Below, one piece after another: positions 1-26,113 of a stretch of 64,000 nt of DNA (positions are counted from its first letter, which is position 1; every line of letters starts with the position of its first letter). The stretch lies in the NCBI GenBank assembly GCA_965262605.1, contig CBDHFN010000003.1, forward strand, positions 7,222 to 71,221, in the 5' to 3' direction. The position numbers were made by a program, and so were the translations under genes. Source of the stretch: Alphaproteobacteria bacterium (GTDB lineage: Bacteria > Pseudomonadota > Alphaproteobacteria > JASGCL01). Below the pieces are notes generated by a model. That model had not been told where the DNA came from and searched no databases. It saw nothing but the letters and a program-made list of their open reading frames with translations.

Positions 1-365
1 TTAACGGGATTTTTGATTTTTAATATTTTCGGGGTAATTTGCCCTTGGGCATTTTTTGCGCTAAAATCAATCACGGCATTGTTATATTTATTGCGCCATT
101 GCGAATCATAATCATATATCATCGGCATAAAATAGCCGTTTTCCAAGGAACCATTAATAATTTGCTTGCCCCGCCAATGAAAAACTAAGTCTATAAGCCC
201 ATTTGTTTGCCCCTTGGCATCAATAAGATATTGCTGGTTTTGCGTATTAATTTGCACGATTGCTTGGGCAACGGGCAAACCCAGACTTTTAATTTGGTAA
301 ATAAAATCTGATGCAATCATCGGTTTTATCGCCAAAAACAGCAATATTAAAGCAATTTTACGCAT
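1..365 (-). CDS. hypothetical secreted protein, 3' end truncated by window start
   Basis: Minus-strand ATG at 365..363 opens a frame (MRKIALILLFLAIKPMIAS...) with a signal-peptide-like N-terminus and no in-frame stop before position 1. It is absent from the ORF track because it runs off the window. Confidence 0.35.
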   Translation of the reverse strand, partial: MRKIALILLFLAIKPMIASDFIYQIKSLGLPVAQAIVQINTQNQQYLIDAKGQTNGLIDLVFHWRGKQIINGSLENGYFMPMIYDYDSQWRNKYNNAVIDFSAKNAQGQITPKILKIKNPV

Positions 366-367
366 TT

Positions 368-3300
368 TCAAGCCAATTTTGCCGAATTTTCCACAATAAC
401 AGGATGCGGTAATTTATGCAAAACTTCAAAAGGCACCACCATTTTTATTTGCGTCATGGTGGTTTGCCAATTTGCCAATAAAGATTTACCCCAATTGGAA
501 TTTGTCGCTTGAATATGCAATTCAAGCAAAGATTTTGCGTGATTTTGCCAATATGGCGTGCTTAAATCATAATAATCAACGCATTGGCGATTGATTTTCT
601 TGCCAAGCTTTTGTTTATTATCCAAAATAAACGCAATACCGCCCGTCATGCCCGCCGCGAAATTATACCCGATGCGTCCCAGAATCATAACTTCGCCACC
701 CGTCATATATTCACAGCCGTTGGAGCCACAACCCTCAACCACGCTGATAGCCCCCGAATTGCGCACAGCAAATCTTTCGCCTGCTTGCCCAGCGGCGAAT
801 AAATAACCCTTGGTTGCCCCATAAAGGCAAGTATTGCCAATAATGCTGTTTTCATAGGTTAAAAGCGTGGAAGTTGCGGTTGGGCGAATCACCACCGAAC
901 CACCGCTTAACCCCTTGGCGACATAATCATTGGCTTCACCAATTAGCTCAATATGCATACCACCGACAATGAAAGCCCCCAGACTTTGCCCCGCGGTGCC
1001 CCGCAATTTAAGCTCAATATGTTTGGGTTGCAAGGCATTCATGCCATATTGCCGTGTGATTGAAGATGCTAGCTTAGTGCCAATCGCGCGGTCGGTATTG
1101 ACAATATTATATTCCAAATGGCATTTTTCACGGGTTGTGAATAATTTATGCGCATCGGCAATAATTTTATCGTCAAGATTTTTGGGCAATTCATTACGAA
1201 ATACCCGCGATTTCTTGGCAAAATCAATATTATTATGGGCTTTTGCCAATAAAGGATTTAAATCCAGACTATCAAGATATTGTTCGGTTTCGTGGTTGCG
1301 CACGACTTGTTGCAATAATTCCGTGCGCCCAATAATATCATGCAAATATTTAAAGCCCAAATGCGCCAAAATTTCGCGAACTTCGGTGGCAATAAAGCTA
1401 AATAAATTCACAACTTTTTCGGGCGTGCCGTTGAATTTTTCCAATAATTTTGGATCTTGGGTGCAAACGCCGACGGGGCAAGTATTAGAATGGCACTGAC
1501 GCACCATCAAGCACCCCATGGCAATTAACGAAGCCGTGCCGATGCCGTATTCTTCCGCACCTAAAATCGCGGCAATCACCACATCGCGCCCAGTTTTAAT
1601 ACCGCCATCAGTGCGCAAAACCACTTTATCGCGCAAATTATTCAAGCATAAAACCTGATGCGCTTCGGCAAGCCCCAATTCCCAAGGCAATCCCGCGTAT
1701 TTAATGGAAGATTGCGGCGATGCGCCCGTGCCACCACTATGACCCGAGATTAAAATCGCATCGGCTTTTGCCTTAACCACGCCCGCGGCGATAGTGCCAA
1801 TGCCAGACCTTGCGACTAATTTAACGCAAACGCGCGCTTCGGGGTTAATTTGTTTTAAGTCATAAATTAACTGGGCTAAATCCTCAATACTATAAATATC
1901 ATGATGCGGTGGCGGGCTGATAAGCGTGACACCTTCGGTGGAATGGCGTAATTTCGCGATAATCGCCGAAACTTTAAAGCCGGGCAATTGCCCGCCTTCA
2001 CCGGGTTTTGCGCCTTGCGCCATTTTAATTTCTATCTCATCACAATTATTAAGATATTCCGCCGTAACCCCAAAACGCCCCGAAGCAATTTGCTTAATCG
2101 CGCTGCACGCATTATCACCATTGGCGCGGGGTTTATATCGTTCGCTATCTTCGCCACCTTCGCCGCTATCCGATTTTGCGCCGATGCGATTCATGGCGAT
2201 TGACAAAGTTTCATGGGCGATGGGCGATAAAGCCCCTAAGCTAATGCCCGGTGAAATTAATCGTTTGCGAATATCGGTGATGGATTCAACTTCTTCAACC
2301 TTTACATTCGCGCCCGATGGTTTAAATTTCAATAAATCGCGGATATGAATCGCGGGTAAATCATAAATCATTTGCGAATATTTGCGAAATAACGCATATG
2401 AATCACGCGTGACCGCGCTTTGCAACATATGGATTGATTCGGCTTCCCAAGCGTGCGATTCGGCGGATTTACGGTATCGGTAAAATCCTCCAATCGGCAA
2501 TGTGCCTGAATATTGCTCAATCGTCTCATAATGATTTTTAAGCAATTGTTGCAAGCCCGTAATGCCTAAACCAGAAATTCGGCTGATAAGACCCGGAAAA
2601 AATTCATTGACCAACGCCCTTGAAAGCCCGATGGCTTCAAAAATATAGCCACCGCGGTATGAACTTATGATGGAAATACCCATTTTGGACATAATTTTCA
2701 ATAAACCATCATCAAGCGATTTTTTATAATTATCAAGCGCCCGTTCCACAGAAATCTTACCCAATAACCCGCGTTCATGCCTGTCTATAATAGTTGCAAC
2801 CGCAAGATTCGGGTTAATTGTTGTCGCGCCAACCCCGATTAAAACCGCAAAATGATGCACATCAAGCGCATCATCGCAACGGATATTAATGCTGGTATAT
2901 GACCTTAAACCCTCTTTACTTAGGCGTGTATGCACGGCGGCGGCGGCTAAAATCATCGGCACAGGGTATAAACCGCAAGCTTCGGGAATTTGGGTGTTAT
3001 CCAAAATAATATACGGATTTTTTGCCAAAGCCGCTTCAAAAGCATTTTCAGAAATTTCTAAAATCGCTTGGCGTAAGCCATTGGGATTGGCGGGATTATA
3101 TAAACATTGAATTTCAATCGCGTCTTTGCCCATCCATTGCCGCAATTTAGCATATTCATCGTCCATTAAAATCGGTGATTGCAATTCCATAAAATCTAAT
3201 TGCCCTTTGGCTGCAAGGCTATTACCCATGTTATTAAGCCTCGTTGCTAGGCTCATTACATGGCGTTCGCGCAATGAATCAATCGGCGGATTGGTGACTT

Positions 3301-4903
3301 GGGCAAAATTTTGCCGAAAAAAATGATGCAAACCGCGGTAAACTCCCGCCAAAACTGCCAAAGGCGAATCATCGCCCATGGATCCCGTGGCTTCTTTACC
3401 TTCCAGCGCCATGGGTTGCAAAATTAATTCGCAATCTTCCATTGTCCAACCCGCAATTAATTGCCGATTAATTAAATCTGTTTTGGTTATTTTGGGCGCA
3501 GGTTTCGTGGCGGGTAATTCTTTGATATTATGAATTTGTTTAATCCAATCAGCATAAGGATTTGCACCAGCAACCATAGATTTTAATTCTTTATCATGAT
3601 AAAATTTACCTTTGGCAAGGTTAATGCCAATCATCTGCCCCGGTCCGACTTTACCGCGCATACGCAAATCACTTTCGCGATATTTCACCATGCCCGTTTC
3701 CGAACCGACAACTAATAAATCATCATTCGTAATTGCATATCGTAATGGGCGCAAGCCGTTTCGGTCTAAACAAGCCAGCACCCAATTACCGCCGACCGCG
3801 CAAATTGCCGCAGGACCGTCCCATGGTTCCCAAGACGAATGGGCATAGCGATAAAATGCTTTGAGATTCGTTGCCATATCGGCGGCTTCTTCCCATGCTT
3901 CGGGCATTAATAATGATTTAATTTCGGGCAAATCGCGGCGCGAATGCAAGTTAATTTCAAAAACATTATCTAACGCCCCTGAATCGGAGACATTGGGCAT
4001 GATAATCGGTAAAATATCCTTCATATTGCCAAATTTATCGTCTTCAAGTCGTTGTTCGCGGTTGCGCATCCAATTAATATTGGCGGATAAGGTATTAATT
4101 TCGCCGTTATGCGCAATGACGCGAAAGGGTTGCGCCAACGCCCAGCTTGGAAAAGTATTCGTGGAATAGCGTTGATGATACACCACGAAATTTGAAATAA
4201 ACCGCGCATCGCATAAATCAGGATAAAAAATATCCAATTGTTCGGCTAAAAACAACCCTTTATAAATGATGGAACGGCTTGAAAAAGAACAAATATAGGC
4301 TTCTAGCAAGTTTTCTTCAAGGAATTTTTTTTCAATTTTACGCCGTATGACATATAATTCGGTTTCAAATTCCTCTTCGGTAAGGTTTTTCGTGTTGTTA
4401 ATTAAGATTTGTTCAATTTCTGGGCGGGTAGAATTGGCTTTATCGCCGATGACGCCCGTGTTAATCGGCACTTGGCGCCAACCATAAATTTGATAGCCTT
4501 TGCGAATAATTTCAGATTCAATAATGACGCGGGTGCGCTCTTGGGCATCTAAATTAGTGCGTGGTAAAAATACCATGCCAATCGCAAATTTATTATTGGG
4601 CTGTTCAATACCCAACGATTTAATATAATCCATAAAAAATTCTTGGGGAATTGCCAAATGAATGCCCGCCCCATCGCCAGTTTTACCATCGGCATCAACC
4701 GCGCCCCTGTGCCATAATGCTTTAAGCGCATCAATGCCATATTGCACGACCGCGCGGGTGGCGTGCCCCTTGATATTCGCAATTAAACCAACCCCGCACG
4801 CCGATTTCTCATATTGCGGTAAATACATGCCATTTTTTGCCAAATTTTGGGCATCTTGGTAAATATTGCCAAAATTTTCTGTGTTTAATGGTTTGTTTTT
4901 CAT
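368..4903 (-). CDS. gltB: glutamate synthase (NADPH) large subunit
   Basis: 1511 aa. N-terminal amidotransferase region with the CGVG catalytic-Cys motif after a short propeptide, and FMN/Fe-S and GXGXG domains typical of GltB. Confidence 0.95.
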   Translation of the reverse strand: MKNKPLNTENFGNIYQDAQNLAKNGMYLPQYEKSACGVGLIANIKGHATRAVVQYGIDALKALWHRGAVDADGKTGDGAGIHLAIPQEFFMDYIKSLGIEQPNNKFAIGMVFLPRTNLDAQERTRVIIESEIIRKGYQIYGWRQVPINTGVIGDKANSTRPEIEQILINNTKNLTEEEFETELYVIRRKIEKKFLEENLLEAYICSFSSRSIIYKGLFLAEQLDIFYPDLCDARFISNFVVYHQRYSTNTFPSWALAQPFRVIAHNGEINTLSANINWMRNREQRLEDDKFGNMKDILPIIMPNVSDSGALDNVFEINLHSRRDLPEIKSLLMPEAWEEAADMATNLKAFYRYAHSSWEPWDGPAAICAVGGNWVLACLDRNGLRPLRYAITNDDLLVVGSETGMVKYRESDLRMRGKVGPGQMIGINLAKGKFYHDKELKSMVAGANPYADWIKQIHNIKELPATKPAPKITKTDLINRQLIAGWTMEDCELILQPMALEGKEATGSMGDDSPLAVLAGVYRGLHHFFRQNFAQVTNPPIDSLRERHVMSLATRLNNMGNSLAAKGQLDFMELQSPILMDDEYAKLRQWMGKDAIEIQCLYNPANPNGLRQAILEISENAFEAALAKNPYIILDNTQIPEACGLYPVPMILAAAAVHTRLSKEGLRSYTSINIRCDDALDVHHFAVLIGVGATTINPNLAVATIIDRHERGLLGKISVERALDNYKKSLDDGLLKIMSKMGISIISSYRGGYIFEAIGLSRALVNEFFPGLISRISGLGITGLQQLLKNHYETIEQYSGTLPIGGFYRYRKSAESHAWEAESIHMLQSAVTRDSYALFRKYSQMIYDLPAIHIRDLLKFKPSGANVKVEEVESITDIRKRLISPGISLGALSPIAHETLSIAMNRIGAKSDSGEGGEDSERYKPRANGDNACSAIKQIASGRFGVTAEYLNNCDEIEIKMAQGAKPGEGGQLPGFKVSAIIAKLRHSTEGVTLISPPPHHDIYSIEDLAQLIYDLKQINPEARVCVKLVARSGIGTIAAGVVKAKADAILISGHSGGTGASPQSSIKYAGLPWELGLAEAHQVLCLNNLRDKVVLRTDGGIKTGRDVVIAAILGAEEYGIGTASLIAMGCLMVRQCHSNTCPVGVCTQDPKLLEKFNGTPEKVVNLFSFIATEVREILAHLGFKYLHDIIGRTELLQQVVRNHETEQYLDSLDLNPLLAKAHNNIDFAKKSRVFRNELPKNLDDKIIADAHKLFTTREKCHLEYNIVNTDRAIGTKLASSITRQYGMNALQPKHIELKLRGTAGQSLGAFIVGGMHIELIGEANDYVAKGLSGGSVVIRPTATSTLLTYENSIIGNTCLYGATKGYLFAAGQAGERFAVRNSGAISVVEGCGSNGCEYMTGGEVMILGRIGYNFAAGMTGGIAFILDNKQKLGKKINRQCVDYYDLSTPYWQNHAKSLLELHIQATNSNWGKSLLANWQTTMTQIKMVVPFEVLHKLPHPVIVENSAKLA

Positions 4904-4904
4904 G

Positions 4905-6404
4905 CTATTCTCCTATGGTAAGTAATTTTTTTACTTTACCCGGCTGGGCAAAGCTCATGGTGCCGTTCATGGCAAAAGATTGGAAATATCGTTTAACCGC
5001 GGGCATGGTGATTTGATTGAAAATGCTTTTGGCTAAGCGGTAATCGTCAAACGCCATAAAACATTGTAATGATTGATTGGCTTGAAATTTACCATCAAAT
5101 AATTGCGGATTAAATTCATTCGCGCCATATGCTTGCCAAATTATTTTATATGGTTGAAAATTATATTTGCCAACCCCCAGCAAAGCCCACCAATGATTGC
5201 GCCTTATCATATTTTGAATAATAACGCCCTTGCGGTTTTTTAAAACGCCTTGATGCTTTTGATAAAAATTATAACAAAGTGGATATTCGGCAAGCTGCTC
5301 CATAGAAATTACTTTGCCATTTTTTTGATACGGCAAAAATACCCATTTTTCTTCGTTTAATTCAGGTGCCTTAAAATTTTCTTTGGTTAATAACGGATAT
5401 AAATATTTTTTGGGAATCGGCACATTTTGAATTTTTTCATTGGACATTAAATAATAATCGTCATTGGCGTGCAAAGATTTTTTATTGAAAAAATATAAAT
5501 AATTGGCACCACAAGTATTTAACCCTTGGCGTGGCATCGCCGATTTTGGAATATGAATCGCATTCATGACATTTTTATCGTGAAAATAATGCAACGCATC
5601 ACCATGTTTATTAAGCGGGTTTAAATATTGTATTTCGTAATTATCTTGGCTGGTTTTAATAAAGGCTTTAATGGGGTAAATTTGTGTTTTATTATTTTGA
5701 AAATAATAAAATCCGCATCGGGTATTAATACCTTTAAATGGGGAAAAACCGCCAAAATCATGAATTTCCATTAAGCAATAATCGCCTTGATTGCCATGAA
5801 ATTCGCGAAATTTTTGTTGCGCGCCATCATTATAAATCAGCGATAAAGGCGCGAAAAAATACGCCTTGCCATTGGGTTTACAATGCGATTGTATAGATTT
5901 TTGCATGATTAAAGCCGCAATATCAATGCGCGATTTCCCCATTAACATATCGCGGCGATTTTTAATTAAATCATGGTCAAAATACACTGATTTTAAAATT
6001 TCTTTGTAATTATTAGGTAAATCATTAAAATTAAGCCATGGCGGGTTGCTTAGAATAATATCAAATTTTTTATCGTGAAAATTGCAAATAAAATCTTGGT
6101 GCCAAAAATTTTCGCGCGGTAAATTTATATTATAAATCTGGTGAAATTTAACGAATGTTTTGGCGAATAATTCGCCGTCTAATTCCACGCCAAACAAGCG
6201 ATTAATCGGTAAATTTTCCAATCGCACCCCTTGGTTTAGGGCAACCTGCACGAGTGCTTGCAAAAGATTACCCTCGCCCATGGTTGGGTCAAATACTGAC
6301 GCGCCATTAAGCCAATCTTTGGCAATATCATATTTTAAGACAAATTCCATGGCGCAATCCAAAGGAGTCATTATTTGCCCAATTTTATGATTGATATTTT
6401 GCAT
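4905..6404 (-). CDS. gamma-class N6-adenine DNA methyltransferase (Eco57I/TaqI-like), stand-alone
   Basis: 499 aa with motif I-like FDPTMGEGNLL and catalytic motif IV NPPW (ILSNPPWLNF). The N-terminal GQIMTP motif is typical of this MTase clade. No nuclease domain and no adjacent REase. Confidence 0.75.
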   Translation of the reverse strand: MQNINHKIGQIMTPLDCAMEFVLKYDIAKDWLNGASVFDPTMGEGNLLQALVQVALNQGVRLENLPINRLFGVELDGELFAKTFVKFHQIYNINLPRENFWHQDFICNFHDKKFDIILSNPPWLNFNDLPNNYKEILKSVYFDHDLIKNRRDMLMGKSRIDIAALIMQKSIQSHCKPNGKAYFFAPLSLIYNDGAQQKFREFHGNQGDYCLMEIHDFGGFSPFKGINTRCGFYYFQNNKTQIYPIKAFIKTSQDNYEIQYLNPLNKHGDALHYFHDKNVMNAIHIPKSAMPRQGLNTCGANYLYFFNKKSLHANDDYYLMSNEKIQNVPIPKKYLYPLLTKENFKAPELNEEKWVFLPYQKNGKVISMEQLAEYPLCYNFYQKHQGVLKNRKGVIIQNMIRRNHWWALLGVGKYNFQPYKIIWQAYGANEFNPQLFDGKFQANQSLQCFMAFDDYRLAKSIFNQITMPAVKRYFQSFAMNGTMSFAQPGKVKKLLTIGE

Positions 6405-6409
6405 GGTAT

Positions 6410-7840
6410 TTACGCAACCCTTGCCGCTGTTTGCAAGGCTTGATTAATGTATTTTTTAATGCCCAAGGCGGCATTTTTGCCATCTTTTATGCCCCAAACA
6501 ACCAATGAAGCCCCGCGCACAATATCACCCGCGGCAAATACGCCCGATAAATTTGTTGCGCCCGCGCTGTTTTTAACGGCAATTGTGCCATTTTTATTAA
6601 CGGCTAATTCAGGTTGATTAAATAAACGCGGCATATCTTCGGCTTCAAAGCCTAACGCCATAATAACTTTATCGCACGCAATAGTTCGTTCAGACCCCTC
6701 AATCGCGACAACCGATTGACGACCATCAGCGGAATCGCTTGTCAAGCGCATATTGGTAATTTCAATGGAGTTTACTTTATCAACCCCCAAAAATTTCACG
6801 GGCGCGCTTAACCAAATAAATTCTACGCCTTCGTCCATAGCATTTTGCACTTCGCGGTCGGAACCGGGCATGTTTTCGCGATCGCGCCGATAAAGGCAGA
6901 TAACTTTTTTCGCGCCTTGGCGAATGGCGGTGCGCACGCAATCCATCGCCGTATCACCACCGCCAACAACCACAATATTTTGTCCTTTGGCATTTAGTGA
7001 TTCATTAGGGGCAATTTTATCGCCTAAATTATCGCGATTAGCTTGCACCAAAAAATCAAGGGCTTGGATAATATTTTTTAAATTATGCCCCGCCACATCC
7101 GATTCGCGTTTTTTATACACGCCAGTTGCAATTAATACGGCGGAATATTCAAGGCGCAATTTTTGAAAATCATCGCCAATATCATGATTAAGTTGAAATT
7201 TTACCCCCGAATCCCTAAGCCATTGGGTGCGTTTTGCGATAATTTCTTTGTCTAGTTTGAAATTAGGAATGCCATAAATCATTAAACCACCCACGCGGTC
7301 GTATTTATCATAAACCACGACTTGAAAGCCAAATTTGCGTAAATCCGCCGCCGCCGCAAGCCCCGCAGGACCCGCGCCAATGATAGCGATTTTTTCTTTG
7401 CGTTCATTTTGGGGTTTTATCGGTTTTACCCAACCTTGTGCCCATGCGGTATCGGTAATATATTTTTCCACCGAACCAATGGTAATATAGCCATGCCCCG
7501 ATTGTTCTATGACGCAATTTCCTTCGCATAATCGGTCTTGGGGGCAAATGCGCCCGCAAACTTCGGGAAAAACATTGGTTTGCGATGATAATTCATATGC
7601 TTCTTGTAAGCGACCTTCGGCGGTAAGCATCAGCCAATCAGGGATATTATTCGCCAAAGGGCAATGAATTTGACAAAATGGCACACCGCATTGTTCGCAC
7701 CGACCCGCTTGTTCGGCGGCAGTTTTATCGTCATATTTTTCCGATATTTCATGGTAATTTTTTTTGCGCTCAAGGGCGGAAGCCTTCATCGGCAATAATT
7801 GCTGGCGATTAACGAATTGAGTCATTTTAGCGGTAGTCAT
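6410..7840 (-). CDS. gltD: glutamate synthase small subunit
   Basis: Fe-S Cys clusters (CEQCGVPFC, CPQDRLCEGNC) and FAD/NAD Rossmann motif IAIIGAGPAGLAAA. Start chosen at MTTAKM (7840), which has an AAGGA Shine-Dalgarno 8 nt upstream; the track ORF extends to 7891. Confidence 0.9.
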   Translation of the reverse strand: MTTAKMTQFVNRQQLLPMKASALERKKNYHEISEKYDDKTAAEQAGRCEQCGVPFCQIHCPLANNIPDWLMLTAEGRLQEAYELSSQTNVFPEVCGRICPQDRLCEGNCVIEQSGHGYITIGSVEKYITDTAWAQGWVKPIKPQNERKEKIAIIGAGPAGLAAAADLRKFGFQVVVYDKYDRVGGLMIYGIPNFKLDKEIIAKRTQWLRDSGVKFQLNHDIGDDFQKLRLEYSAVLIATGVYKKRESDVAGHNLKNIIQALDFLVQANRDNLGDKIAPNESLNAKGQNIVVVGGGDTAMDCVRTAIRQGAKKVICLYRRDRENMPGSDREVQNAMDEGVEFIWLSAPVKFLGVDKVNSIEITNMRLTSDSADGRQSVVAIEGSERTIACDKVIMALGFEAEDMPRLFNQPELAVNKNGTIAVKNSAGATNLSGVFAAGDIVRGASLVVWGIKDGKNAALGIKKYINQALQTAARVA

Positions 7841-8005
7841 AATTTTTCCTTTTTGATGATTCGTGCATTCACCATAATAAATAAATTGCAAAAATCTAGA
7901 TAAAAAGTGATTTATTTCAATTTAATTGACAAAAAAAATTTGTTTAAGGCAGAAAAATAACTTTTTTTAAACTAATATAAAATTATTATCAATATAGTTG
8001 ACAAA

Positions 8006-8761
8006 CTATATTAATGCCCGCATTTGCAAAGCCTGAAATTCGCTGGTGGGGATTTGCGCCACTAAAATATCATAAATTTCTTGCTCATCGCGTTTTAAAA
8101 ATTCGCTTAATAATTGCAATTCTGCTAAGGACATCGCCGATAAATGCGCAATAAAAACTTGATTCATCATTAAATCAATTTCTTTGGTGCCACGATGCTG
8201 GGCGCGAAAGGTAATTTTTTTAATGGTTTTTTGATAATTATCATCAGGGCAATCTTCGCGACCACAAAAAAATTTTTGTCCATTGGAATATATAAAATAT
8301 TCGCCGTTTTCGCCCTTTGCATGGGCGACTAAATCATAAAAAACATTGCGGTTGCATCGCAACCATAAATTATCGCGCACCCGCACCAAAGGCTTGGGTT
8401 CATCGTGGTTATTTAATAAAATAAAAGGCTGCTCGGCGGTAATTTCAACCCAAAAATCTAAATTCGTGCGAATTAAAATTTTTTCATCGCTTATATCGGC
8501 TTCTACGCCGATAAATGGCGTATCTTCAACGATTATTTTACCCTTTTCAAAGGGCGTTGCCAAAAAATAATCGTTGGCTTCGCGAATCAGGCAAACCGCA
8601 AATAATTGCGCTAATTTTAAGCGTCCAATCGGGGAATTTTGATAATACCATTGCCCATTTTTATCAATTTTAATGGCAAAATCACCACAAACTGGCGGGT
8701 ATGAAACACCACTTAACCCCTTGCCCAAAGCCATTAATGAGGCAAAATCGGGCTTTGCCAT
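8006..8761 (-). CDS. DUF1285-family conserved alphaproteobacterial protein
   Basis: 251 aa with the PPVCGDF...DGxWxYxxSPIGR pattern recalled for DUF1285. Start overlaps the hfq stop (TAATG). Confidence 0.5.
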   Translation of the reverse strand: MAKPDFASLMALGKGLSGVSYPPVCGDFAIKIDKNGQWYYQNSPIGRLKLAQLFAVCLIREANDYFLATPFEKGKIIVEDTPFIGVEADISDEKILIRTNLDFWVEITAEQPFILLNNHDEPKPLVRVRDNLWLRCNRNVFYDLVAHAKGENGEYFIYSNGQKFFCGREDCPDDNYQKTIKKITFRAQHRGTKEIDLMMNQVFIAHLSAMSLAELQLLSEFLKRDEQEIYDILVAQIPTSEFQALQMRALI

Positions 8762-9003
8762 TACGAATCACAATCATCATCATCGTCTAAATTTAAATTT
8801 TCGGTGGGCATGATGGTTGAAATTGCATGTTTATAGACTAATTGCGATTGACCATCGCGTTTTAGCAAAATACTGAAATTATCAAACCAAGTAACATTAC
8901 CTTGAAGCTTGACCCCATTCACTAAGAAAATAGTAACTGCCACCTTTAATTTTCGTGCTTGATTTAAAAATAAATCTTGCAAATTTTTCTTCTCCTGCGC
9001 CAT
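8761..9003 (-). CDS. hfq: RNA chaperone Hfq
   Basis: 80 aa. Sm1/Sm2 motifs ([13 protein letters not shown]...FDNFSILL...[13 protein letters not shown]). Unusual acidic C-terminal tail DDDDDCDS. Confidence 0.9.
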
Positions 9004-9338
9004 AATATTCCTTTTGTTGATTGGTTTTTTTAATGTAATTTTCGGCGATAAGTTTATAAAACTGATTCTTTTATCATTTGCAAGTATTATTTTAATTTTA
9101 TGGTAATTTATTTATACGCCATGATTACTGATTAAAATTAGGGAATAAAATTTTACTTGCATTTTAAACAATTATGATGGCGTAGCATGAAGGAATAGCA
9201 ACGCGGCGCGGAAATAAGGATTAATGCAACAAACTAAAAATACTGATTTTTTAGAAAAAACTCAAAATAAACCCAAAATAGCATTTTAAGCTTTACTTTG
9301 TGAAAGAATCTTTTTATTTTTATTTTGAGGAGTAAAAT

Positions 9339-10484
9339 ATGGCAGAAAATTTAATTTGGGATTTAAAGCATTCCAATTCTGAAGACAACGAGCAAAATAA
9401 AAAAAAATTACAGAATTTTTTATTAGCCAAGAATCTTGTTTGCTTGCTGGGTAGTGGCGCGTCTTTTGGGAAATTTAAAAATGATACCCAAAATACATTT
9501 CCAAGCATGGGTGAATTATTGGAAGCTATTAAAAGTAAAACCGAATTACTTGAAAATTTTAATAAAATTGCAGTTAAAGAGAAAAAGTTAAATGATGAAA
9601 AAAATCTTGAAGTTTTATTATCAAAAATCTCCCAATTATCGGTTCATGATGATATTAAAAAGGAAGTTGAAAATTATATTAATGAAGTAAAATGTTTAAT
9701 CACAACAATGTGCACTAAAACTATAAATTTTGAAGGTGAATCTAAAGAAATTCCACCCCACCTTGAATTTTTACGCAAATTACATAAACGCGGCAGTGGC
9801 AAAGATCGGTTGAAAATTTTCACCACAAATTATGATACATTAATTGAGCAAGCCGCCGCCGAACAAAATATCGTGATTATTGATGGTTTTTCTTTTACCA
9901 GCCCACGAAAATTTTCACCCCGAAATTTTAAATATGATATTATTCAAACCGAATCCAATTACCAAAAAAATCAACCGATTTATAATTTAATAAAATTATA
10001 TAAAATACATGGTTCAGTTAATTGGCAAGAAGAAAATCATGAAATAATTCAAAAAGAAAATCCCAATAAACCATGTATAATATACCCATCTTCCACAAAA
10101 TATCAATTATCTTATCAAAAACCATATTTTGAAATGATGAGCCAGTTTAATAATGCAATGGCGACCGAAGAAACTTGTTTATTGGTAATTGGATTTAGTT
10201 TTAGTGATGACCATATTTTCAGTGCGATTAAAAATGCCTTAACTCAAGACACAACATTTAAAATGATTATTGTCGCGCCAGATTTAATAAAATCAGATAA
10301 AGAAGAAAAATATCCAAATTTATCAAAATTAAAAAAAATTGCCTTAAAAAATGAGCAATTATTTCTAATTAATGCAACATTTAAGCAATTTGCAAATGCA
10401 ATTCCCAAATTTAATGATGCGGATACCGAATCACAAAAACTTGAACTTATATCAAAAATTTTAGACGCAAAAAATGACAAATAA
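9339..10484 (+). CDS. SIR2-like NAD+-hydrolase, partner of the HerA ATPase (SIR2-HerA defense module)
   Basis: 381 aa. N-terminal glycine loop LLGSGASFG, FTTNYDTLIEQA (catalytic-Asn motif of defense-type SIR2 domains), and LYKIHGSVNW (HG catalytic-His motif). Strong GAGGAG Shine-Dalgarno. Very AT-rich. Confidence 0.75.
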   Translation: MAENLIWDLKHSNSEDNEQNKKKLQNFLLAKNLVCLLGSGASFGKFKNDTQNTFPSMGELLEAIKSKTELLENFNKIAVKEKKLNDEKNLEVLLSKISQLSVHDDIKKEVENYINEVKCLITTMCTKTINFEGESKEIPPHLEFLRKLHKRGSGKDRLKIFTTNYDTLIEQAAAEQNIVIIDGFSFTSPRKFSPRNFKYDIIQTESNYQKNQPIYNLIKLYKIHGSVNWQEENHEIIQKENPNKPCIIYPSSTKYQLSYQKPYFEMMSQFNNAMATEETCLLVIGFSFSDDHIFSAIKNALTQDTTFKMIIVAPDLIKSDKEEKYPNLSKLKKIALKNEQLFLINATFKQFANAIPKFNDADTESQKLELISKILDAKNDK

Positions 10485-12174
10485 AGACCATCAACAAATT
10501 TTTATTGAAAAATTATATATTGGTAAAATTACCAATATTACTTATTCCAAGGTTGAATGCGTGATTGATTATAACCCATCAAACAAAACCACCACGCATT
10601 TTGGTAATCAATATATGTCGGGTTCGGTTGGTGAATATATCGTTATTGAACATGAATATCTTGCAATTTTGGGGCAGATATATGCCATAAATCTTGAAGA
10701 ACGAGAAAAAAATTATGATGATAGCCAAGCATTAAAACCACGCGTTTCAATACAATTATTAGCAACTTATTATTGGCTTGAAGATAAATTACAAGCTGGA
10801 ATCAAGGAATCACCAAGAATAAGCGAAAAAATTTATTCCGCGCCCAATTGGTTTTTAAATAAACTAACCAATTTAATCAATGACAAAAATGAAAATGGAA
10901 AGATAACGCTTGGCAAATTAAGCAAAGGCGTAGATGGTATGGTGGAATTTCCATGGCAGGCATTATTTGAAAGGCATTGTGCAATTTTGGGGGCAACGGG
11001 GGGTGGCAAATCATATAGTGTTGCAAAAATTATTGAAGAATTAATAAAATTAAATGATGCTGAAGCACCAAATATTTTATTATTGGACGCGACAGGGGAG
11101 TATCAAAAATTTAAAAGGAAAAATAAATATATACTTGGCGAAGATTGTTTTTTAAATTATGCAAATTTTAATGATAATGATTTTATGGCATTATTTAGTC
11201 CAGCACCAAATATTCAAACACCGATATTTATTGAAGCAATAAAAAGTCTTAAAGCAGTTGCATTTGCCAAAAGACAATCAGTAAATCCATTGCAGGAATA
11301 TATAAAAGATAGTGGCGACAATTCCCTACTATTTAAGAGAAATAAAAATAAGCAATTTTATATTAATTTTTTAAAAGAAATAGAAAGTAGCGAGTATGTT
11401 AACAACCCAAACAGCCAGTATGATGTAAATAAATTACCTGATCAAATTCAATTAGAATGCATTTTTGATTCTAATAGGAATGATAATGATAAAGATAATT
11501 TTAAATTTTGGGGTGATATTAATAATAATTCCTTAGTATTTTGCACTACTCTAATTTTAAGAATTAGAAGTTTTCTTATGGCAGAATACACTAAAAAAAT
11601 ATTTCAAAGCAATGATGATAATAATATTTTTAATTTATTAAAGAAAGACAAAGGTAAAATAAATAAACTAACCCATATTTCCCTTAAAGAAGTATCATAT
11701 GAATTTCAAATGCGTGAAATTATAGTCAATTGTATTGCCCGTAAATTATTAACAATGGCACGCGAAGGCAAATTTCAACAAAAACCTTTAATAATTTTCA
11801 TTGACGAAGCCCATAATTTTATCGGTAAAAAAGCAGGAGGCGGTGAAAATAGATTTCCCTTAGATGCGATTGAAATTATTGCCAAAGAGGGGCGAAAATA
11901 TGGCTTGCATTTATGTTTGGCAACACAACGACCCGCCGATTTACCCGATGGAATTATTAGTCAAATGGGTTGTATGCTAGTTCATCGCTTAACAAATGGC
12001 GCAGACCGCGAAAAAATTGAACGGGCAAGCAATGACATTGACCGCGAAACTGCCCGCAATTTACCATCTTTGATTGCGGGTGAAGCGATTATAGCAGGCG
12101 TTGGCTTTCCATTCCCAATGACTATTCAAATGGACAAACCTAAAAATTGCCCAGAGTTTAAAGCAAATTCATAA
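10474..12174 (+). CDS. HerA-like (DUF87/FtsK-HerA superfamily) ATPase/helicase, SIR2-HerA module partner
   Basis: 566 aa. Beta-rich N-terminal region, Walker A ILGATGGGKSYSV, Walker B LIIFIDEAHNF (DEAH), and downstream LATQRPADL (TQRP motif typical of HerA). 11-nt overlap with the upstream gene. Confidence 0.75.
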   Translation: MTNKDHQQIFIEKLYIGKITNITYSKVECVIDYNPSNKTTTHFGNQYMSGSVGEYIVIEHEYLAILGQIYAINLEEREKNYDDSQALKPRVSIQLLATYYWLEDKLQAGIKESPRISEKIYSAPNWFLNKLTNLINDKNENGKITLGKLSKGVDGMVEFPWQALFERHCAILGATGGGKSYSVAKIIEELIKLNDAEAPNILLLDATGEYQKFKRKNKYILGEDCFLNYANFNDNDFMALFSPAPNIQTPIFIEAIKSLKAVAFAKRQSVNPLQEYIKDSGDNSLLFKRNKNKQFYINFLKEIESSEYVNNPNSQYDVNKLPDQIQLECIFDSNRNDNDKDNFKFWGDINNNSLVFCTTLILRIRSFLMAEYTKKIFQSNDDNNIFNLLKKDKGKINKLTHISLKEVSYEFQMREIIVNCIARKLLTMAREGKFQQKPLIIFIDEAHNFIGKKAGGGENRFPLDAIEIIAKEGRKYGLHLCLATQRPADLPDGIISQMGCMLVHRLTNGADREKIERASNDIDRETARNLPSLIAGEAIIAGVGFPFPMTIQMDKPKNCPEFKANS

Positions 12175-15404: not shown

Positions 15405-16972
15405 GATATTGCTCCTCTTTGCTGGGAATCCGTGGTGATAGTTTTAATAAGATTATATGCCATAATTAACGCCCCACTTAAATATAACAAGCCACCAAAC
15501 GCCCGCAATATATAATATGGCTGAATATGCGCAATAGTTTCCACAAAACTATATTGCAAAAAGCCAAGCTTATCATAACTACGCCACATTAAGCCTTGCG
15601 AAATTCCGCTGACCCACATGGAAGACGCATAAAATACAATGCCAATTGTTGCCAACCAAAAATGAATATTGACAAGATTTAAGCTAAAAACTTCTTTTTT
15701 GCCGTATAATTTGGGCACTAAATAATATAAAACCGCAAAGGAAATTAAACCATTCCAACCCAAAGCTCCCGAATGCACATGCCCAATCGTCCAATCTGTA
15801 TAATGGCTTAGGCTATTGACAGATTTAATGGACATTAACGGACCTTCAAATGTTGACATGCCGTAAAATGCTAACGAAGCGACAAACATTTTAATTATCG
15901 GGTCGGTGCGCAATTTATGCCATGCGCCTTGCAAAGTCATTAAGCCATTTAACATACCGCCCCAGCTTGGCATCCAGAGCATTACCGAAAATACCATGCC
16001 CAAAGTTTGCGCCCAATCAGGCAAAGCCGTATAATGCAAGTGATGGGGTCCCGCCCAAATATACATAAAAATCAAACTCCAAAAATGCACGATTGACAAT
16101 CGGTATGAATAAATCGGTTGCCCGATGCGTTTGGGCACAAAATAATACATCATGCCCAAAAATCCCGCAGTCAAGAAAAAACCAACCGCATTATGCCCAT
16201 ACCACCATTGGGTTAAGGCATCTTGCACGCCCGCAAATAACCCATATGATTTTGACCCCAAGAAAGAAACAGGCACAGCTAAATTATTGACTAAATGCAA
16301 TAAAGCCACGGTGACGATGAAGGCTAAATAAAACCAATTCGCAACAAAAATATGGGGTTCCTTGCGTTTTAATATTGTGCCTAAGAACACTAATAAATAA
16401 GCCACCCAAACTATTGTCAGCCAAATGTCAACATACCATTCAGGTTCGGCATATTCTTTGCCTTGGGTTGCACCCATTAAATATCCAGTTGCGGCAAGAA
16501 TAATAAAAACTTGATACCCCAAAACCACAAACCAAGCTAATCGCCCCAGTGCTAATTTTGCTTGGCAAGTGCGCTGGACAACATAAAATGAACTGGCAAT
16601 TAAAATATTGCCACCAAAGGCAAAAATTACCGCCGAAGTATGCAAGGGGCGCAACCTGCCGAAATTGGTAAATTCATAACCAAAATTAAGCACGGGGAAG
16701 GCTAATTGCAAGGCGATTATTAAGCCAACCAAAAATCCCGCAAGCCCCCAAAATAAAGTAGCCCAAACACCAAAGCGAATTGGGTCGTCAAAATATAATT
16801 CGTCCTTAATATTTTGCGGATTTAAACCATAAATAACCCAACCCAAAGCCAAAGCCATAATAATACCACCATGCACCCGAAATGCCGTGTCATGCCCAAG
16901 CCCAGCCATAATAATGCCAATTATCCCCGCCACAACGGCAAACGCAATTGATGTAATACGCCAATTTGTCAT
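15401..16972 (-). CDS. ccoN: cbb3-type cytochrome c oxidase subunit I
   Basis: 523 aa, polytopic, with the His-rich heme-copper oxidase subunit I signature (HxxLxxxGG, WxGPHH). Confidence 0.95.
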
Positions 16973-17026
16973 TGGTTAACTCCCTTACAAAATTTTATTA
17001 ACTATATTATAAAAGGTAAATTATAC

Positions 17027-17040
17027 CATGATTTAAATCA
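17027..17040. promoter_or_regulatory. candidate FNR/FixK-type anaerobox (aTGAT-N4-ATCAA) upstream of ccoN
   Basis: ATGATTTAAATCAA matches 9 of 10 positions of TTGAT-N4-ATCAA, about 55-70 bp upstream of the ccoN start. This is the classical control site of ccoNOQP/fixNOQP. Confidence 0.45.
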
Positions 17041-17086
17041 AAATATACTAATAATATCAAAAATTTTCAATGAAGCGACTGATTTT

Positions 17087-17614
17087 TTACAACGCAACAT
17101 AAGAACCATCAATATCTAACAAAATGCCATTTACTGCTAATTGCGGAAAATTTGCGTTGATGATTTTTTTTGCTTTTTGGAATACTTCACCATGAAGTTT
17201 GGTTTCTTCGTCCCTACCTTTGATGGAATTTTCACCATATACTAATTTGAAAGCCCCGCAGTCTCGGTGATGTATGACATGAATTTCACTGATATTATGT
17301 AATTCTTTCGCTAATTTGACATGTTCGTTAAAGCTTGCAATCCAAGTGGGAAATTTATCAATTTGCAAAGCAAGTGAACCACCCGCCAAGGAAAAATTAT
17401 CAAAACTTCCGCTATATCCCTTTGATTCCAAGTATTTTTGTGATAAATGCGGATAACGATAATCAATACAACCAAGGACCAATGCTTTAATTGTAGTGCC
17501 ACCCGCTTGCAAACCCTTTACCGCAAGGCTTTGGGCAATAAAAAAAGCCCCTGATAATTTTAAAAATTCGCGCCTGTTATTTTGATTGCAACATTTTTCC
17601 ATTTTTTTCCTCAT
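17087..17614 (-). CDS. beta-class carbonic-anhydrase-like protein with twin-arginine (Tat) signal
   Basis: RREFLKL Tat motif. CIDYR (CxDxR) and HHRDCGAF (HxxCG) zinc-ligand patterns of beta-CAs. 175 aa. Confidence 0.4.
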   Translation of the reverse strand: MRKKMEKCCNQNNRREFLKLSGAFFIAQSLAVKGLQAGGTTIKALVLGCIDYRYPHLSQKYLESKGYSGSFDNFSLAGGSLALQIDKFPTWIASFNEHVKLAKELHNISEIHVIHHRDCGAFKLVYGENSIKGRDEETKLHGEVFQKAKKIINANFPQLAVNGILLDIDGSYVAL

Positions 17615-17664
17615 TGCTTGTTGATATTTATAATAATATTTAAATTTAAAGCAAAAGTCAAACT

Positions 17665-18480
17665 TTAAATTAAATATATAAAAAAATCATGGTCTTGGCA
17701 AAATTTTTCGCATTCGGCTTCTTGCATTAAATTGCCTAAATGTGTGAAAAATACGCCAGCAATACCAATTTCTTGCATGGATTTCAACGATTCTAAGCCT
17801 AAGGTTGGTAAGTCCAAAGCCATTGATTGCCCCGATTTACAATTTTTTACCATAATGGGTTTTTCGCCATTTTTAATTAACCCGCCCATGCGGTTAATCA
17901 AGCCTTGCGTGCCTTCGCAAGCCTCAATCCCAAGCACTAAATTTTGCTGCATAATAATTGCTTGCCCAATATCAAATGGGCTTAAAGTTTTTAAGATTTC
18001 TTGCCCATATTGCGCAGATTTTATTTGTTCTGGACTGGGTTTTTTGCCCGCCCAAAGCCCAATTTTGCGCTGAATTTGCAAGGCTTGATTGGGTGATTGC
18101 CATTCAACGCCAGTTTTATCGGTGATAAAATTGGTCAAAAGCTTTAATAATCCATCATCGCCTTTTAAAAACGCCATGGCATTTTGTTTCAAAAATTCCT
18201 TGCCCATAGTATCAATATGCTTAATTTCATTCAAGCTTGGACGGCGAATATCGCCCGCCATGATAGCAATTTTCGCGTCAATTTTGGTAATTAATTGGCA
18301 TAATTTTCCCAATTCGCCCAAATGCAATTTTATATGGGGAATTGCTTGCCATTCATCAGCATATGCAATGCCATGCAATAAAATCGCATGACAAGGTTGG
18401 CAATGGCGCATAATTTGAATCGGCAAAACCCCTTGCCCCGCCACGATAATTTTTACTAAATTAGTCATCTTTGGCTTCAA
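17665..18480 (-). CDS. lpxI: UDP-2,3-diacylglucosamine pyrophosphatase LpxI (DUF1009)
   Basis: Matches the LpxI pattern ([10 protein letters not shown]; [23 protein letters not shown]; DLPTLGLE) and lies downstream of lpxA, as in other alphaproteobacteria. Confidence 0.75.
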
Positions 18481-19693
18481 TTAAGCCGTTTTTATGGGAT
18501 AAAGCCAAAAATTGCCGTAAATCATCAATTAAATGGTTGGTTTGCTTGAAATTATCGGCATGTTCTTTGATAGTTTTATTATCAGAATTAAAAAACACGC
18601 TGCGGGCGAATTTATTTAATAACGCCACGGCTTCTTTATCAAAGCCTTTTCGTTTTAAGCCTAAATGATTAATTCCCCGCAATTTTGCCCGATGGCTATA
18701 AACCATGCCATAGGGAATTACATCCTTTTCAACGCCGCTTAAACCGCCAATCATTGCCCCAGCGCCAATATGCACAAATTGTTGCACCGCCGATAATCCC
18801 CCCAAAATTGCGCCATCATCAACGCGGACATGCCCCGCCAAAGTCGCATTATTTGCCAAAATAACATTATTGCCGATGATGCAATCATGGGCGATATGGC
18901 TTGACATCATCAATAAGCAATTATCGCCAATTTGCGTCAGCGACCCGCCGCCCAATGTGCCCGGATTTATTGTAGTATGTTCGCGGATTTTATTATTTTT
19001 ACCAATAATTAAGCGGTTTTCCTCGCCTTGATATTTTAAGTCTTGGGGATTCGTGCCGATTGATGCAAATGGATAAATTTCTGTGCCCGCGCCAATTTCT
19101 GTATTGCCTGCAATATTAACATGGTTGTGAATCACGACATTTTCATGAATCACGACATTTTTGCCAATCACGCTATACGCGCCAATTTCAGAATTTTTAC
19201 CAATTTTTGCGCCTTCTTCAATAATGGCGGTTTTATGAATTTTTGCATTAGAATCATCACGAATCATGGCGCAAATAAGGGCTTCGGCGCATAATTGCCC
19301 ATCAACATAGGCGTTGCCTTGTAATTTCCAAACGGGACCACGGCTTTGCACCACTTCCACTTTAACATGCAAAACATCACCGGGGGTAACGATTTTGCGA
19401 AATTTTGCGTTATCTATGGACATGAAATAAACTAATTTTCCCGCAAACCCATCGCCCAAGGAATGCACAACCAATGCCCCCGCCGTTTGCGCCATGGATT
19501 CAATAATTAACACGCCCGGCATAACAGGGTGCGACGGAAAATGCCCATTAAAAAAATTTTCATTGATTGTCACGCATTTTATGCCGCACGCACTTTTGAA
19601 TGGCACAACATCAATAATTTTATCAATTAATAAAAATGGGTATCTGTGCGGAATTAATTTCATAATTTCTTGAATGTTAATTTGATTATCCAT
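18461..19693 (-). CDS. fabZ-lpxA: FabZ-LpxA fusion: 3-hydroxyacyl-ACP dehydratase fused in frame to UDP-GlcNAc O-acyltransferase
   Basis: Residues 1-147 form a complete FabZ hot-dog domain ([11 protein letters not shown]...GHFP...). Residues ~150-410 are LpxA hexapeptide repeats that begin where LpxA normally starts ([15 protein letters not shown]). There is no stop or start codon at the junction. Confidence 0.8.
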
Positions 19694-23954: not shown

Positions 23955-25040
23955 ATGTCGCGCAGAAAATTTTTAAATAACGCCATAACCACTAGCATAG
24001 GATTATCGCTGGGCGGGGGGGCATTGTTTGCGCCCAATATATTAAAAGCGCAAACCCCGATTTTGCATGTTTTAGCCCCAAGCGCGCTATATTCCAATGA
24101 AATTATTGAATATTTGCAAACTTCTATTAACGCGAAAATTCAAATTACGGCTTATAAAAATGAATTTCAAATTATTAATAATCTTAAATCAAGCAATATT
24201 AATTATGATTTAATTATTTGCAGCCATTTTACCGGTATGATTTTGAAAAAACACGAATTAATTCAGCCGATTCAATGGGGAAAAATTAAAAATATATCCG
24301 TATATCGCTATGATTTTGAAATTAATGATTATGATCCATTGCGCGAATTTTCCATTTTATTTGCGTATCAATTTTGGTCATTGGCATTTAACACAAAATT
24401 AACCTATCAAAAACCGATAAGCTGGGGTGCAATTTTTGATTCTATACCCACTGATTCGCAAATAAATTGGTCGCAAGCACCCATGGATTTAATTAAAACT
24501 GCGTGTTTATATTTGGGTTTTGGCATTAATAATACTAATCGGTCAAATTTTAATATTGTTGAAGACATGTTAATTACCTCTTTGCCTATGGTCAAGAAAA
24601 TACCTTTTAGCTTAAATGTATTGGGTTTTGAATTTAATCAAGTTGACATTGCGTTTGCAACCACGAATCAAATTCAAAACGCGATTAATAACTATAAAAA
24701 CATTGGCGCGGCTTTTCCCAAGGAGGGCGTGCCAGTTTATGAAACTATTGCTTTAATTTCTAAGGATAGTTCACAAATTGAATTGGTGCATAGCTTAATT
24801 AATTTATTGCTTAATCCCCTAGTTGGCAAGGCAATTGCCGAAGATTCGTGCTTATTAAACCCGTTTGAACGGGTAATAAGGCTAACTTCCAATAACTATC
24901 AAACCAATAAAATCATTAATCCATCTTTAAATAAACTTATTAAACTTGAACCCATACGCACCTTTGATATACAAACATATAATTATATGCAAGATATGTG
25001 GGCAAGAATAATTAGCAACGCGAAAAGCGAGTCTTCGTAA
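23955..25040 (+). CDS. PotD/PotF-family periplasmic polyamine-binding-like protein, Tat-type signal (paralog 1)
   Basis: RRKFL signal. Alignable to E. coli PotD (YDLIICSHFTGMILKKHELIQPI ~ YDLVVPSTYYVDKMRKEGMIQKI; PKEG...LINLLLNPLVGKAIAE ~ PKEG...LINFLLRPDVAKQVAE). No permease or ATPase genes adjacent. Confidence 0.6.
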   Translation: MSRRKFLNNAITTSIGLSLGGGALFAPNILKAQTPILHVLAPSALYSNEIIEYLQTSINAKIQITAYKNEFQIINNLKSSNINYDLIICSHFTGMILKKHELIQPIQWGKIKNISVYRYDFEINDYDPLREFSILFAYQFWSLAFNTKLTYQKPISWGAIFDSIPTDSQINWSQAPMDLIKTACLYLGFGINNTNRSNFNIVEDMLITSLPMVKKIPFSLNVLGFEFNQVDIAFATTNQIQNAINNYKNIGAAFPKEGVPVYETIALISKDSSQIELVHSLINLLLNPLVGKAIAEDSCLLNPFERVIRLTSNNYQTNKIINPSLNKLIKLEPIRTFDIQTYNYMQDMWARIISNAKSESS

Positions 25041-26113
25041 TGTTAAGAAGAAATTATCTTAGTAAATTCTTAATGGGAGTATGTGGATTTTCTTTATCAA
25101 ATATTTTAAGTGCAGATGAATTAAAACAAGATAGCGGCGTTATTGAAGGGTATGTGCCACAGGCATCTGGAAATTTGGATTTTTTTGGGCATTTCACGCG
25201 CACATATGGTATAAAAGTTAAATTTAATTCATACACAAATTATTTAAAATTTGTCAATGATGTTTTAAGTGATAAAATTCAAGCCGATTTTCTAATTGTT
25301 AGCTCATACACCGCTGATGCTTTAATTAAAGCGGGCAAAGTCCAAAAAGTAGACTGGAGTAGGGTTAAAAATTATGAATTTCCAAAATATGAATCAGTAA
25401 GTAATACTTATGATAAAAACCGCGAATATAGTTTGCCCATTGGCACGGCTTATTTATGTTTGGCATATGATAAAATTCAATTTCCGAATACACCGTTGAC
25501 TTGGGGGGTTTTATTTGATAAAAAATTACCAAAATCCAAAATTGGTTGGTTAAATTATCCGAATGATGTTTTTCAAATTGCTGGGGCTTATATGGGGTAT
25601 GGTTATAATGTTTCGGATAAAAATACATTAATAAAAATTCAAAAATTTTTAATTGATAATGCCAGCAAAGTTAACCGATTAGCCGAAGGCGCGCAACAAG
25701 ACTTAATAGCGTATAAAGAAGTAAGCCATATTGAAACTTATACTTCGGCAATTTTGCAAGTCATGAATGAATTTAATCATATTGACATTCAATTTCCCCA
25801 AGAAGGCATTTTAGCCGATGAATCGGTTGCCGTCATTCCCAATAGCATGAATAATATGAATAATTTATATCAATTTGTTAATTATTTAATGATACCTTTG
25901 GTAGGCAAAACTTTGATTGAAAGCACTAATCTTGATGCTTCATTTGATAGTTTTTTGCGTTTAACTTCCGCAAAATATAAAAATAATAAATTTATTCACC
26001 CTAATTTAAATAAATCGGCGAAAGTTTACCCATTTTTAAATTTAGGCACGCAATATCAAGATACGATTAATAGCCTATGGCTTGATGTTATTAAAAATAT
26101 TCCCAAAGTTTAA
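25040..26113 (+). CDS. PotD/PotF-family periplasmic binding-like protein (paralog 2)
   Basis: Paralogous to the upstream ORF (TWGVLFD, FPQEG, LMIPLVGKTLIE). Start overlaps the previous gene's stop. Confidence 0.6.
   Translation: MLRRNYLSKFLMGVCGFSLSNILSADELKQDSGVIEGYVPQASGNLDFFGHFTRTYGIKVKFNSYTNYLKFVNDVLSDKIQADFLIVSSYTADALIKAGKVQKVDWSRVKNYEFPKYESVSNTYDKNREYSLPIGTAYLCLAYDKIQFPNTPLTWGVLFDKKLPKSKIGWLNYPNDVFQIAGAYMGYGYNVSDKNTLIKIQKFLIDNASKVNRLAEGAQQDLIAYKEVSHIETYTSAILQVMNEFNHIDIQFPQEGILADESVAVIPNSMNNMNNLYQFVNYLMIPLVGKTLIESTNLDASFDSFLRLTSAKYKNNKFIHPNLNKSAKVYPFLNLGTQYQDTINSLWLDVIKNIPKV

Follow-up and report, generated by a model that had tools for sequence, protein, structure and literature searches.

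The stretch of DNA analyzed here, called the window below, is a 64-kb piece (64,000 nucleotides) of an alphaproteobacterial contig (CBDHFN010000003.1, assembly GCA_965262605.1), and the gene under study encodes a predicted DNA methyltransferase lying between gltD and gltB, the genes for the small and large subunits of glutamate synthase. Coordinates are given in the numbering of the whole window, and L-numbers (L003, L014 etc.) refer to loci carrying members of the methyltransferase family or relatives of GltD. All three genes are on the minus strand and are read in the order gltD, methyltransferase gene, gltB. The small-subunit gene gltD (6410..7840) was assigned by TIGR01318 (494.5 bits, cut-off 482.95) and by the Pfam domains Fer4_20 and Pyr_redox_2; its start was placed at the ATG at 7840 (MTTAKMTQF...) by alignment to the L003 orthologue, the mechanical list of open reading frames (ORFs) giving a TTG at 7891. 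For the large-subunit gene gltB (368..4903), NF008730 gave a score of 1668.8 bits, and Pfam recognized in the product the full set of four glutamate-synthase domains (GATase_2, Glu_syn_central, Glu_synthase and GXGXG). Between the two, an ORF running from ATG to TAG (4905..6404) encodes 499 amino acids plus the stop codon. The first-pass annotation had described a 499-residue methyltransferase ORF set off from its neighbors by gaps of 5 and 1 nt, and the sequence reads exactly so.

The gltD stop codon is followed on the minus strand by the 5-nt spacer ATACC (6405..6409, reading TAA-ATACC-ATG), and at the other junction (4904..4914, minus strand, TAG-C-ATG) the methyltransferase stop at 4905-4907 is parted from the gltB start by the single nucleotide at 4904. 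Spacers of 5 and 1 nt are too short to hold a promoter or a terminator, and a scan of positions 1-9400 for intrinsic terminators found no minus-strand terminator-like site at either junction. A Shine-Dalgarno-like AGGAG (4910-4914) lies within the last codons of the methyltransferase gene, 6 nt ahead of the gltB ATG, and may act as the gltB ribosome-binding site. With gaps of 1-5 nt and a ribosome-binding signal for gltB inside the 3' end of the methyltransferase gene, a shared transcript and linked translation are likely, and most likely the methyltransferase is carried on the gltD-gltB transcript, with the gltD promoter driving its expression and its translation proceeding in tandem with that of the glutamate synthase subunits. 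A further minus-strand ORF (1-365; MRKIALILLFL..., signal-peptide-like) begins a few bases past the gltB stop and leaves the window at its edge; the operon may extend into it, or the genes may merely be packed tightly.

The 499-residue ORF is no chance reading frame: it has at least 839 homologues at E <= 1e-3, its top non-self match reaches 3.7e-136, and Pfam cut-offs are passed by both PF07669 Eco57I (34.8 bits against 25.3, E 2.2e-8, residues 100-223) and PF02384 N6_Mtase (25.5 bits against 20.4, E 1e-5, residues 8-201). The N-terminal catalytic domain (residues ~1-225, 5730..6404, minus strand) is of the Rossmann type that binds S-adenosylmethionine (SAM), as assigned from Pfam and from alternating strands and helices in the structural model. 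It holds motif I, FDPTMGEGNLL, for SAM binding (residues 38-48, 6261..6293, minus strand), whose D39, P40, T41 and G45 do not vary across 120 family members, and motif IV, SNPPW, for the pocket of the flipped adenine (residues 119-123, 6036..6050, minus strand), in which N120, P121, P122 and W123 are likewise invariant. The C-terminal target-recognition domain (residues ~226-499, 4908..5729, minus strand) was delimited from family-wide conservation, PADLOC and Foldseek. This domain is conserved end to end in the family (PRQGxNTxGAN, WWALLGVGxYNF, QANQSLQ, GTMxxAQPGK), PADLOC type IIG and type II methyltransferase models match both halves of the protein (best 1.2e-26), and the PADLOC model MTase_II PDLC03310 covers residues 321-476. 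Motif I thus precedes motif IV and is followed by ~275 residues of C-terminal part, the layout of the gamma class.

An AlphaFold model of the methyltransferase built from 120 homologues had a mean predicted local distance difference test (pLDDT) score of 91.7 and a predicted template modeling (pTM) score of 0.86. Searched against the Protein Data Bank (PDB) with Foldseek, it matched first CamA, the adenine methyltransferase A of Clostridioides difficile (2.9e-23), and then M.BseCI, MmeI, BpuSI, M.TaqI and BrxX. The alignments to CamA and M.BseCI ran over ~560 columns and so took in both domains, and all 50 Foldseek matches listed were DNA adenine methyltransferases with target-recognition domains. 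By sequence, a PDB search with the protein gave marginal matches only (E 0.063), and Pfam TaqI_C did not match it at E <= 0.01. Motif order, Pfam cut-offs and the two-domain match to solved DNA methyltransferases agree with the gamma-class call of the first-pass annotation, and a predicted two-domain gamma-class N6-adenine DNA methyltransferase is well supported by the models; by homology the protein would methylate DNA. That annotation had also named what would speak against the call, namely a missing catalytic-motif context or membership in an RNA or protein methyltransferase family; the motifs are in place, and the folds matched, in the 50 listed, are all those of DNA methyltransferases.

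The family to which the protein belongs (at least 839 proteins of ~500 residues, aligned over their full length) is found overwhelmingly in Bacteroidota and Spirochaetota among species-representative genomes. None of its members is more than 44% identical to the window methyltransferase, and the best 120 are on average ~56% identical to each other. The one conserved feature of the gene neighborhood across the family is an ORF of ~222 residues directly upstream of the methyltransferase gene, in the same orientation and mostly at a distance of 8 nt; no other conserved neighborhood was found. By tblastn, this partner or a piece of it was present at 28 of 83 family loci and no trace of it was found at the other 55. 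In about 18 of the 83 it is full-length in one frame, in one case with the motif aspartate replaced (GFVVKTK), and about 10 copies are degraded: those at L026 and L058 are frameshifted; those at L024, L055 and L066 have lost the N-terminal part; that at L008 is reduced to 60 codons; those at L015, L020 and L027 comprise the last 16-22 codons; and that at L077 is fragmentary. The copy at L014 (7307-7993 of that locus, plus strand) may serve as an example; 27 further family loci have the partner, or what is left of it, in the corresponding place. WP_101357358.1 of Raineya orbicola is a 222-residue example of the protein.

The partner has 609 homologues (the best 120 listed are 70-95% identical), which are labeled "hypothetical protein" in the sources except for one UniRef entry named "Restriction endonuclease". 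No model of Pfam, NCBIfam or PADLOC matched it. Its AlphaFold model (pLDDT 87.7) gave a structural match to R.SwaI with TM-scores (template modeling) of 0.69/0.68 and E 2e-8, followed by EcoRV and HincII, and its sequence carries a motif of the PD-(D/E)XK kind (IFDF...GFDVKTK, D...DxK). To R.SwaI, EcoRV and HincII it is alike in fold and in this PD-(D/E)XK-like motif, at sequence identities of 10-15%. Weak PDB sequence matches to AbrB/VapB-like proteins (E 0.002) were considered and were superseded by the restriction-endonuclease structural match. On the strength of the model, the partner is a candidate new type IIP restriction endonuclease. With an adjacent partner of endonuclease fold that ranges from intact to vestigial, the family is the methyltransferase (M) component of a type IIP restriction-modification (R-M) system whose restriction (R) gene has been lost repeatedly. 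It had been proposed that the window gene might be the remnant of a decayed R-M system, and the SwaI/EcoRV-like partner, present in states from whole to vestigial, bears this out at the level of the family. Palindromes including CTCGAG, CACGTG, GATATC and GATC are depleted in family loci with the partner relative to those without it, a comparison in which phylogeny and the presence of other R-M systems are confounders, and palindrome avoidance across these two sets of loci yielded no single clear candidate for the recognition site. The phage collection contained no matches to the methyltransferase and plasmid matches were remote (21-22% identity), leaving a phage or plasmid origin unsupported.

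In the window the methyltransferase gene is solitary. The ORFs checked for nucleases were those between 368 and 27240 and seven more between 28507 and 44494, and among them there was no restriction endonuclease, specificity subunit or nuclease gene; the others are ordinary housekeeping genes and the SIR2-HerA pair described below. A tblastn search with the partner endonuclease over the full 64 kb gave no match (best E 0.56), and the 5-nt gap between gltD and the methyltransferase gene is too small for a vestige of it. The statement that no restriction endonuclease, specificity subunit or nuclease lies nearby therefore holds for all the ORFs checked. The adjoining genes are gltD and gltB in place of the cognate endonuclease that a complete type II R-M system would show. 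The gene instead has the character of an orphan retained in a lineage, intact and at the same locus in a second genome.

This second genome is represented by L003, a 77-kb contig of assembly GCA_013572995.1, of which a 21.5-kb locus was compared. It has the same gltD-methyltransferase-gltB block, with a 1-nt gap between gltD and the methyltransferase gene and a 4-nt overlap (ATGA) of the methyltransferase stop with the gltB start. The two GltB proteins are 82% identical, the GltD proteins 75% and the methyltransferases 44%, and no synteny beyond the three-gene block was found between the window and the 21.5-kb locus. The next-closest GltD proteins are 62-64% identical to that of the window, the best named relative being from Hwanghaeella (63%). 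Whether relatives carry the operon without the insert had been put forward as a check; in the three outgroup loci examined, L086, L087 and L088, gltD and gltB are neighbors separated by 16-52 nt, gltD coming first. Since the nearest other GltD relatives have adjacent gltD and gltB, the insert is the derived state, and the view that its presence in this core operon is unusual is upheld outside the lineage.

At 16 positions that hardly vary elsewhere in the family, the window and L003 methyltransferases depart together from the family residue, and because of these shared derived substitutions a single old insertion in the common ancestor of both organisms is indicated, as far as sequence comparison can tell. 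Two independent insertions at the same site were rejected on the same substitutions; the rejection is not strong, at 33/100 tree support. The donor family being essentially one of Bacteroidota and Spirochaetota, the window gene has an apparent cross-phylum origin. A metagenome scan with patterns of the subclade formed by the window and L003 proteins returned one relative of 28% identity and no further subclade member among the matches listed, and a literature search found nothing relevant on an orphan methyltransferase tied to gltB or gltD.

Constraint on the protein was read from the alignment of 120 family members. All 54 invariant columns are present in the window methyltransferase, as they must be by construction, and 126 of the 159 columns conserved at >=90% are kept. 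Expressed as near-invariant columns retained, this is 79% for the window protein and 77% for that of L003, against a family median of 98%. Most replacements are conservative (W to F, Y to F, L to I, M or F). Between the window and L003 proteins, identity is 79.5% at family-conserved columns and falls to 36%, 25% and 12.5% as columns grow more variable. Identity graded by column conservation in this way is the pattern expected if purifying selection on the fold and active site continues, and it argues for such selection over drift or the mere upkeep of an open frame. The G+C content at third codon positions (GC3) of the gene is 0.340, with a window mean of 0.356 +/- 0.055, and its low overall G+C stems mostly from codon positions 1 and 2; host-like GC3 is consistent with long residence.

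The explanation that we favor, with a probability of about 0.78, is that the gene is an orphan methyltransferase derived from a type IIP R-M system, inserted without its R gene in a common ancestor of the two organisms and retained in the glt operon. It would descend from the M gene of a system common in Bacteroidota and Spirochaetota, whose R protein probably had a SwaI/EcoRV/HincII-like fold and was encoded directly upstream of M and often lost. An M gene without R would have entered the gltD-gltB spacer in the ancestor of the window and L003 organisms, and the orphan would since have been kept intact, constrained yet fast-evolving. If it acts as its homologues M.TaqI and CamA do, the enzyme would bind its site as a single molecule, the target adenine would be flipped into the NPPW pocket, and SAM would donate the methyl group. 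Site binding, adenine flipping and SAM methyl transfer are established for gamma-class enzymes. For CamA they are covered by PMC8187626. The gene might benefit the cell by shielding it from invading cognate R-M systems or through a part in epigenetic regulation, or it might just be hard to delete without harm to gltB expression.

Several observations weigh against this explanation or parts of it. The window methyltransferase has lost 33 of 159 near-invariant residues (21%), and both it and the L003 protein are among the three most divergent of the 120, so the activity of so divergent an enzyme may be altered or weakened. In the neighbor-joining tree the pair formed by the window protein and P0003 has only 33/100 bootstrap support, P0030 (Leptospira-type) joins the group, and long-branch effects are possible. 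The block is carried by two genomes only. Counts of sigma-70 promoters and of intrinsic terminators in positions 1-9400 equal those of shuffled sequence, so that the case for co-transcription comes from the spacing of the genes. A cognate endonuclease could sit outside the 64-kb window. The open frame, finally, might be kept in part to spare gltB polarity effects and not for methyltransferase function; avoidance of polarity by itself would not explain conservation that is site-specific.

This last point leads to the alternative that the methyltransferase is a neutral or selfish passenger, useless or inactive, and kept by its position inside an essential operon. In such a setting a clean deletion would be rare, and a premature stop would cut gltB expression by polarity or by the loss of translational coupling; the ribosome-binding signal for gltB embedded in the 3' end of the gene fits this logic, as do the faster evolution of the methyltransferase relative to its neighbors (44% identity against 75-82%) and the 33 near-invariant family residues lost out of 159. 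Selection for an open frame alone, however, would not spare catalytic and target-recognition positions as the fall from 79.5% to 12.5% requires, neither the window nor the L003 protein has lost motif I, motif IV or any invariant residue, and most of the substitutions are conservative. On balance we consider a passenger unlikely.

A more novel reading is that the glutamate-synthase operon has taken the methyltransferase over as a functional component. If so, its level, set by the gltD-gltB transcript, would follow nitrogen status, N6-methyladenine across the genome or at specific sites would give a readout of nitrogen assimilation, and the gene would amount to an epigenetic switch in central metabolism; selection for the nitrogen link would then explain why the block has been kept in two diverged and otherwise rearranged genomes. 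We regard this as a slim prospect.

That the gene is half of a working R-M system with its endonuclease encoded elsewhere in the genome is very improbable. Only 64 kb of a ~1.7-Mb genome were examined, which leaves room for such a gene, but wherever the partner occurs in family loci it sits directly upstream of M, a solitary M is the usual state of the family (55 of 83 loci), and no partner-like sequence was found by tblastn in the window. Nor did the search of all loci find the partner in the 21.5 kb of L003, where the sole called gene with a nuclease Pfam match is GmrSD-like. An RNA or protein (glutamine-N5) methyltransferase, possibly acting on a glutamate-synthase-related substrate, would account for a position that is odd for a DNA methyltransferase, and NPPY/F/W motifs are shared by PrmC/HemK and by some m6A enzymes of rRNA and tRNA, but this is barely credible when the faint NCBIfam PrmC match (TIGR03534, E 0.0055) scores 16.2 bits against a cut-off of 199.1, no RNA or protein methyltransferase was among the 50 Foldseek matches listed, the entire two-domain model including the C-terminal domain aligns to DNA methyltransferases whose DNA-bound structures are solved, relatives occur alongside a gene of restriction-endonuclease fold, and family members outside the window/L003 lineage have no glt gene linkage.

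Defense genes stand beside the glt operon in both genomes that carry the block, and they are different in each. In the window, two overlapping ORFs (9339-10484 and 10474-12174, plus strand), adjoining hfq and 3 kb from the glt operon, encode a SIR2-HerA anti-phage pair (PADLOC SIR2 2.7e-79 and HerA 2.7e-141; NCBIfam SIR2_antiphage and HerA_antiphage), which is not part of an R-M system. With a GC3 of 0.21-0.23, where the window averages 0.36, the pair looks recently acquired. In L003, a gene directly after gltB (16075-17679 of that locus, plus strand) encodes a DUF262 (GmrSD_N) plus HNH protein with a GC3 of 0.27 against ~0.53 for gltB; the protein resembles a type IV modification-dependent endonuclease.

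Other genes of the window were recorded in passing. Between hfq and gltD, an ORF of 251 residues (8006-8761, minus strand) combines both the N and the C domain of DUF1285 with an Sdh5/SdhE flavinylation-factor domain. The lpxD-fabZ-lpxA-lpxI cluster contains what looks like a fusion of fabZ and lpxA, an ORF of 410 residues (18461-19693, minus strand) whose product has a FabA/FabZ-like dehydratase domain as well as LpxA-type hexapeptide and Acetyltransf_11 domains. The LpxI and cbb3 oxidase genes of the window suggest, along with the gltD-then-gltB gene order and the Hwanghaeella GltD relative, an alphaproteobacterial origin. Two adjacent ORFs of ~360 residues (23955-25040 and 25040-26113, plus strand), the second with a GC3 of 0.24, had no Pfam or PADLOC match, and a dCTP-deaminase-like protein of 262 residues (32874-33662, minus strand; Pfam DCD 2.3e-18, GC3 0.217) had no PADLOC match. 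Rfam PYLIS_3, the pyrrolysine insertion element of mttB, matched 34136-34235 (minus strand) with 47 bits against a gathering threshold of 38, inside the ORF at 33738-35276 (minus strand), which encodes an uninterrupted MttB family protein of 512 residues (Pfam MTTB 2.5e-109). The ORF contains no in-frame stop and so presumably encodes an MttB homologue lacking pyrrolysine, whose coding sequence is similar to the element at the nucleotide level.

Bacterial epigenetic regulation arises chiefly through orphan methyltransferases, among them Dam, CcrM and CamA, whose origin from R-M systems has mostly been deduced and not observed. The family described here displays the full series in public genomes, from intact R-M pairs through frameshifted R genes and 16-codon R vestiges to solitary M genes. 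The window gene would be an end point of that series: it would have passed between phyla, come to lie within an operon central to nitrogen assimilation, and been maintained there by selection. The finding leaves the general picture of R-M biology as it was and offers a test case: is an orphan of this kind co-expressed with glutamate synthase, and is it kept for its function or for its position?

Among known systems, fusions of nuclease and methyltransferase and the methylases of phage-exclusion systems are the more distant. MmeI and BpuSI (type IIG/IIL) and PglX/BrxX of BREX share the Eco57I-type core and a recognition domain with the window methyltransferase (Foldseek 1e-16 to 1e-12). The best PADLOC type IIG match pairs residues 111-425 with positions 603-957 of a profile of 1100, and the 499-residue protein starts with the methyltransferase domain and has no N-terminal nuclease domain of the kind that a type IIG/IIL fusion would carry. 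As a BREX or DISARM methylase it was rejected, no brxA/B/C, pglZ, brxL or drmA/B/C being present among the ORFs examined and the protein being less than half the length of PglX.

The methyltransferases of type IIP systems are closer. M.BseCI (PDB 7QW5-8) and M.TaqI (PDB 2ADM, 1G38) have the same domain order and the same NPPY/W motif IV as the window methyltransferase, with Foldseek values of 3e-21 and 1e-13, respectively, and sequence identities of 12-15%. Their systems have a separate small endonuclease, as do the partner-bearing members of the family, whereas the window gene stands without one.

The nearest structural counterpart is CamA (PDB 7LNI/7LT5), at an identity of only 16-18%. CamA is a monomeric gamma-class N6-adenine DNA methyltransferase with a C-terminal recognition domain, and a lineage-conserved orphan without an endonuclease (PMC8187626). 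It methylates CAAAAA, has a documented role in sporulation and is encoded outside any metabolic operon, whereas the window methyltransferase is encoded inside one; relatives of the latter, unlike CamA, still carry an endonuclease partner. What is unusual about the window gene is its position in a core operon, kept across two diverged genomes, together with its apparent cross-phylum origin.

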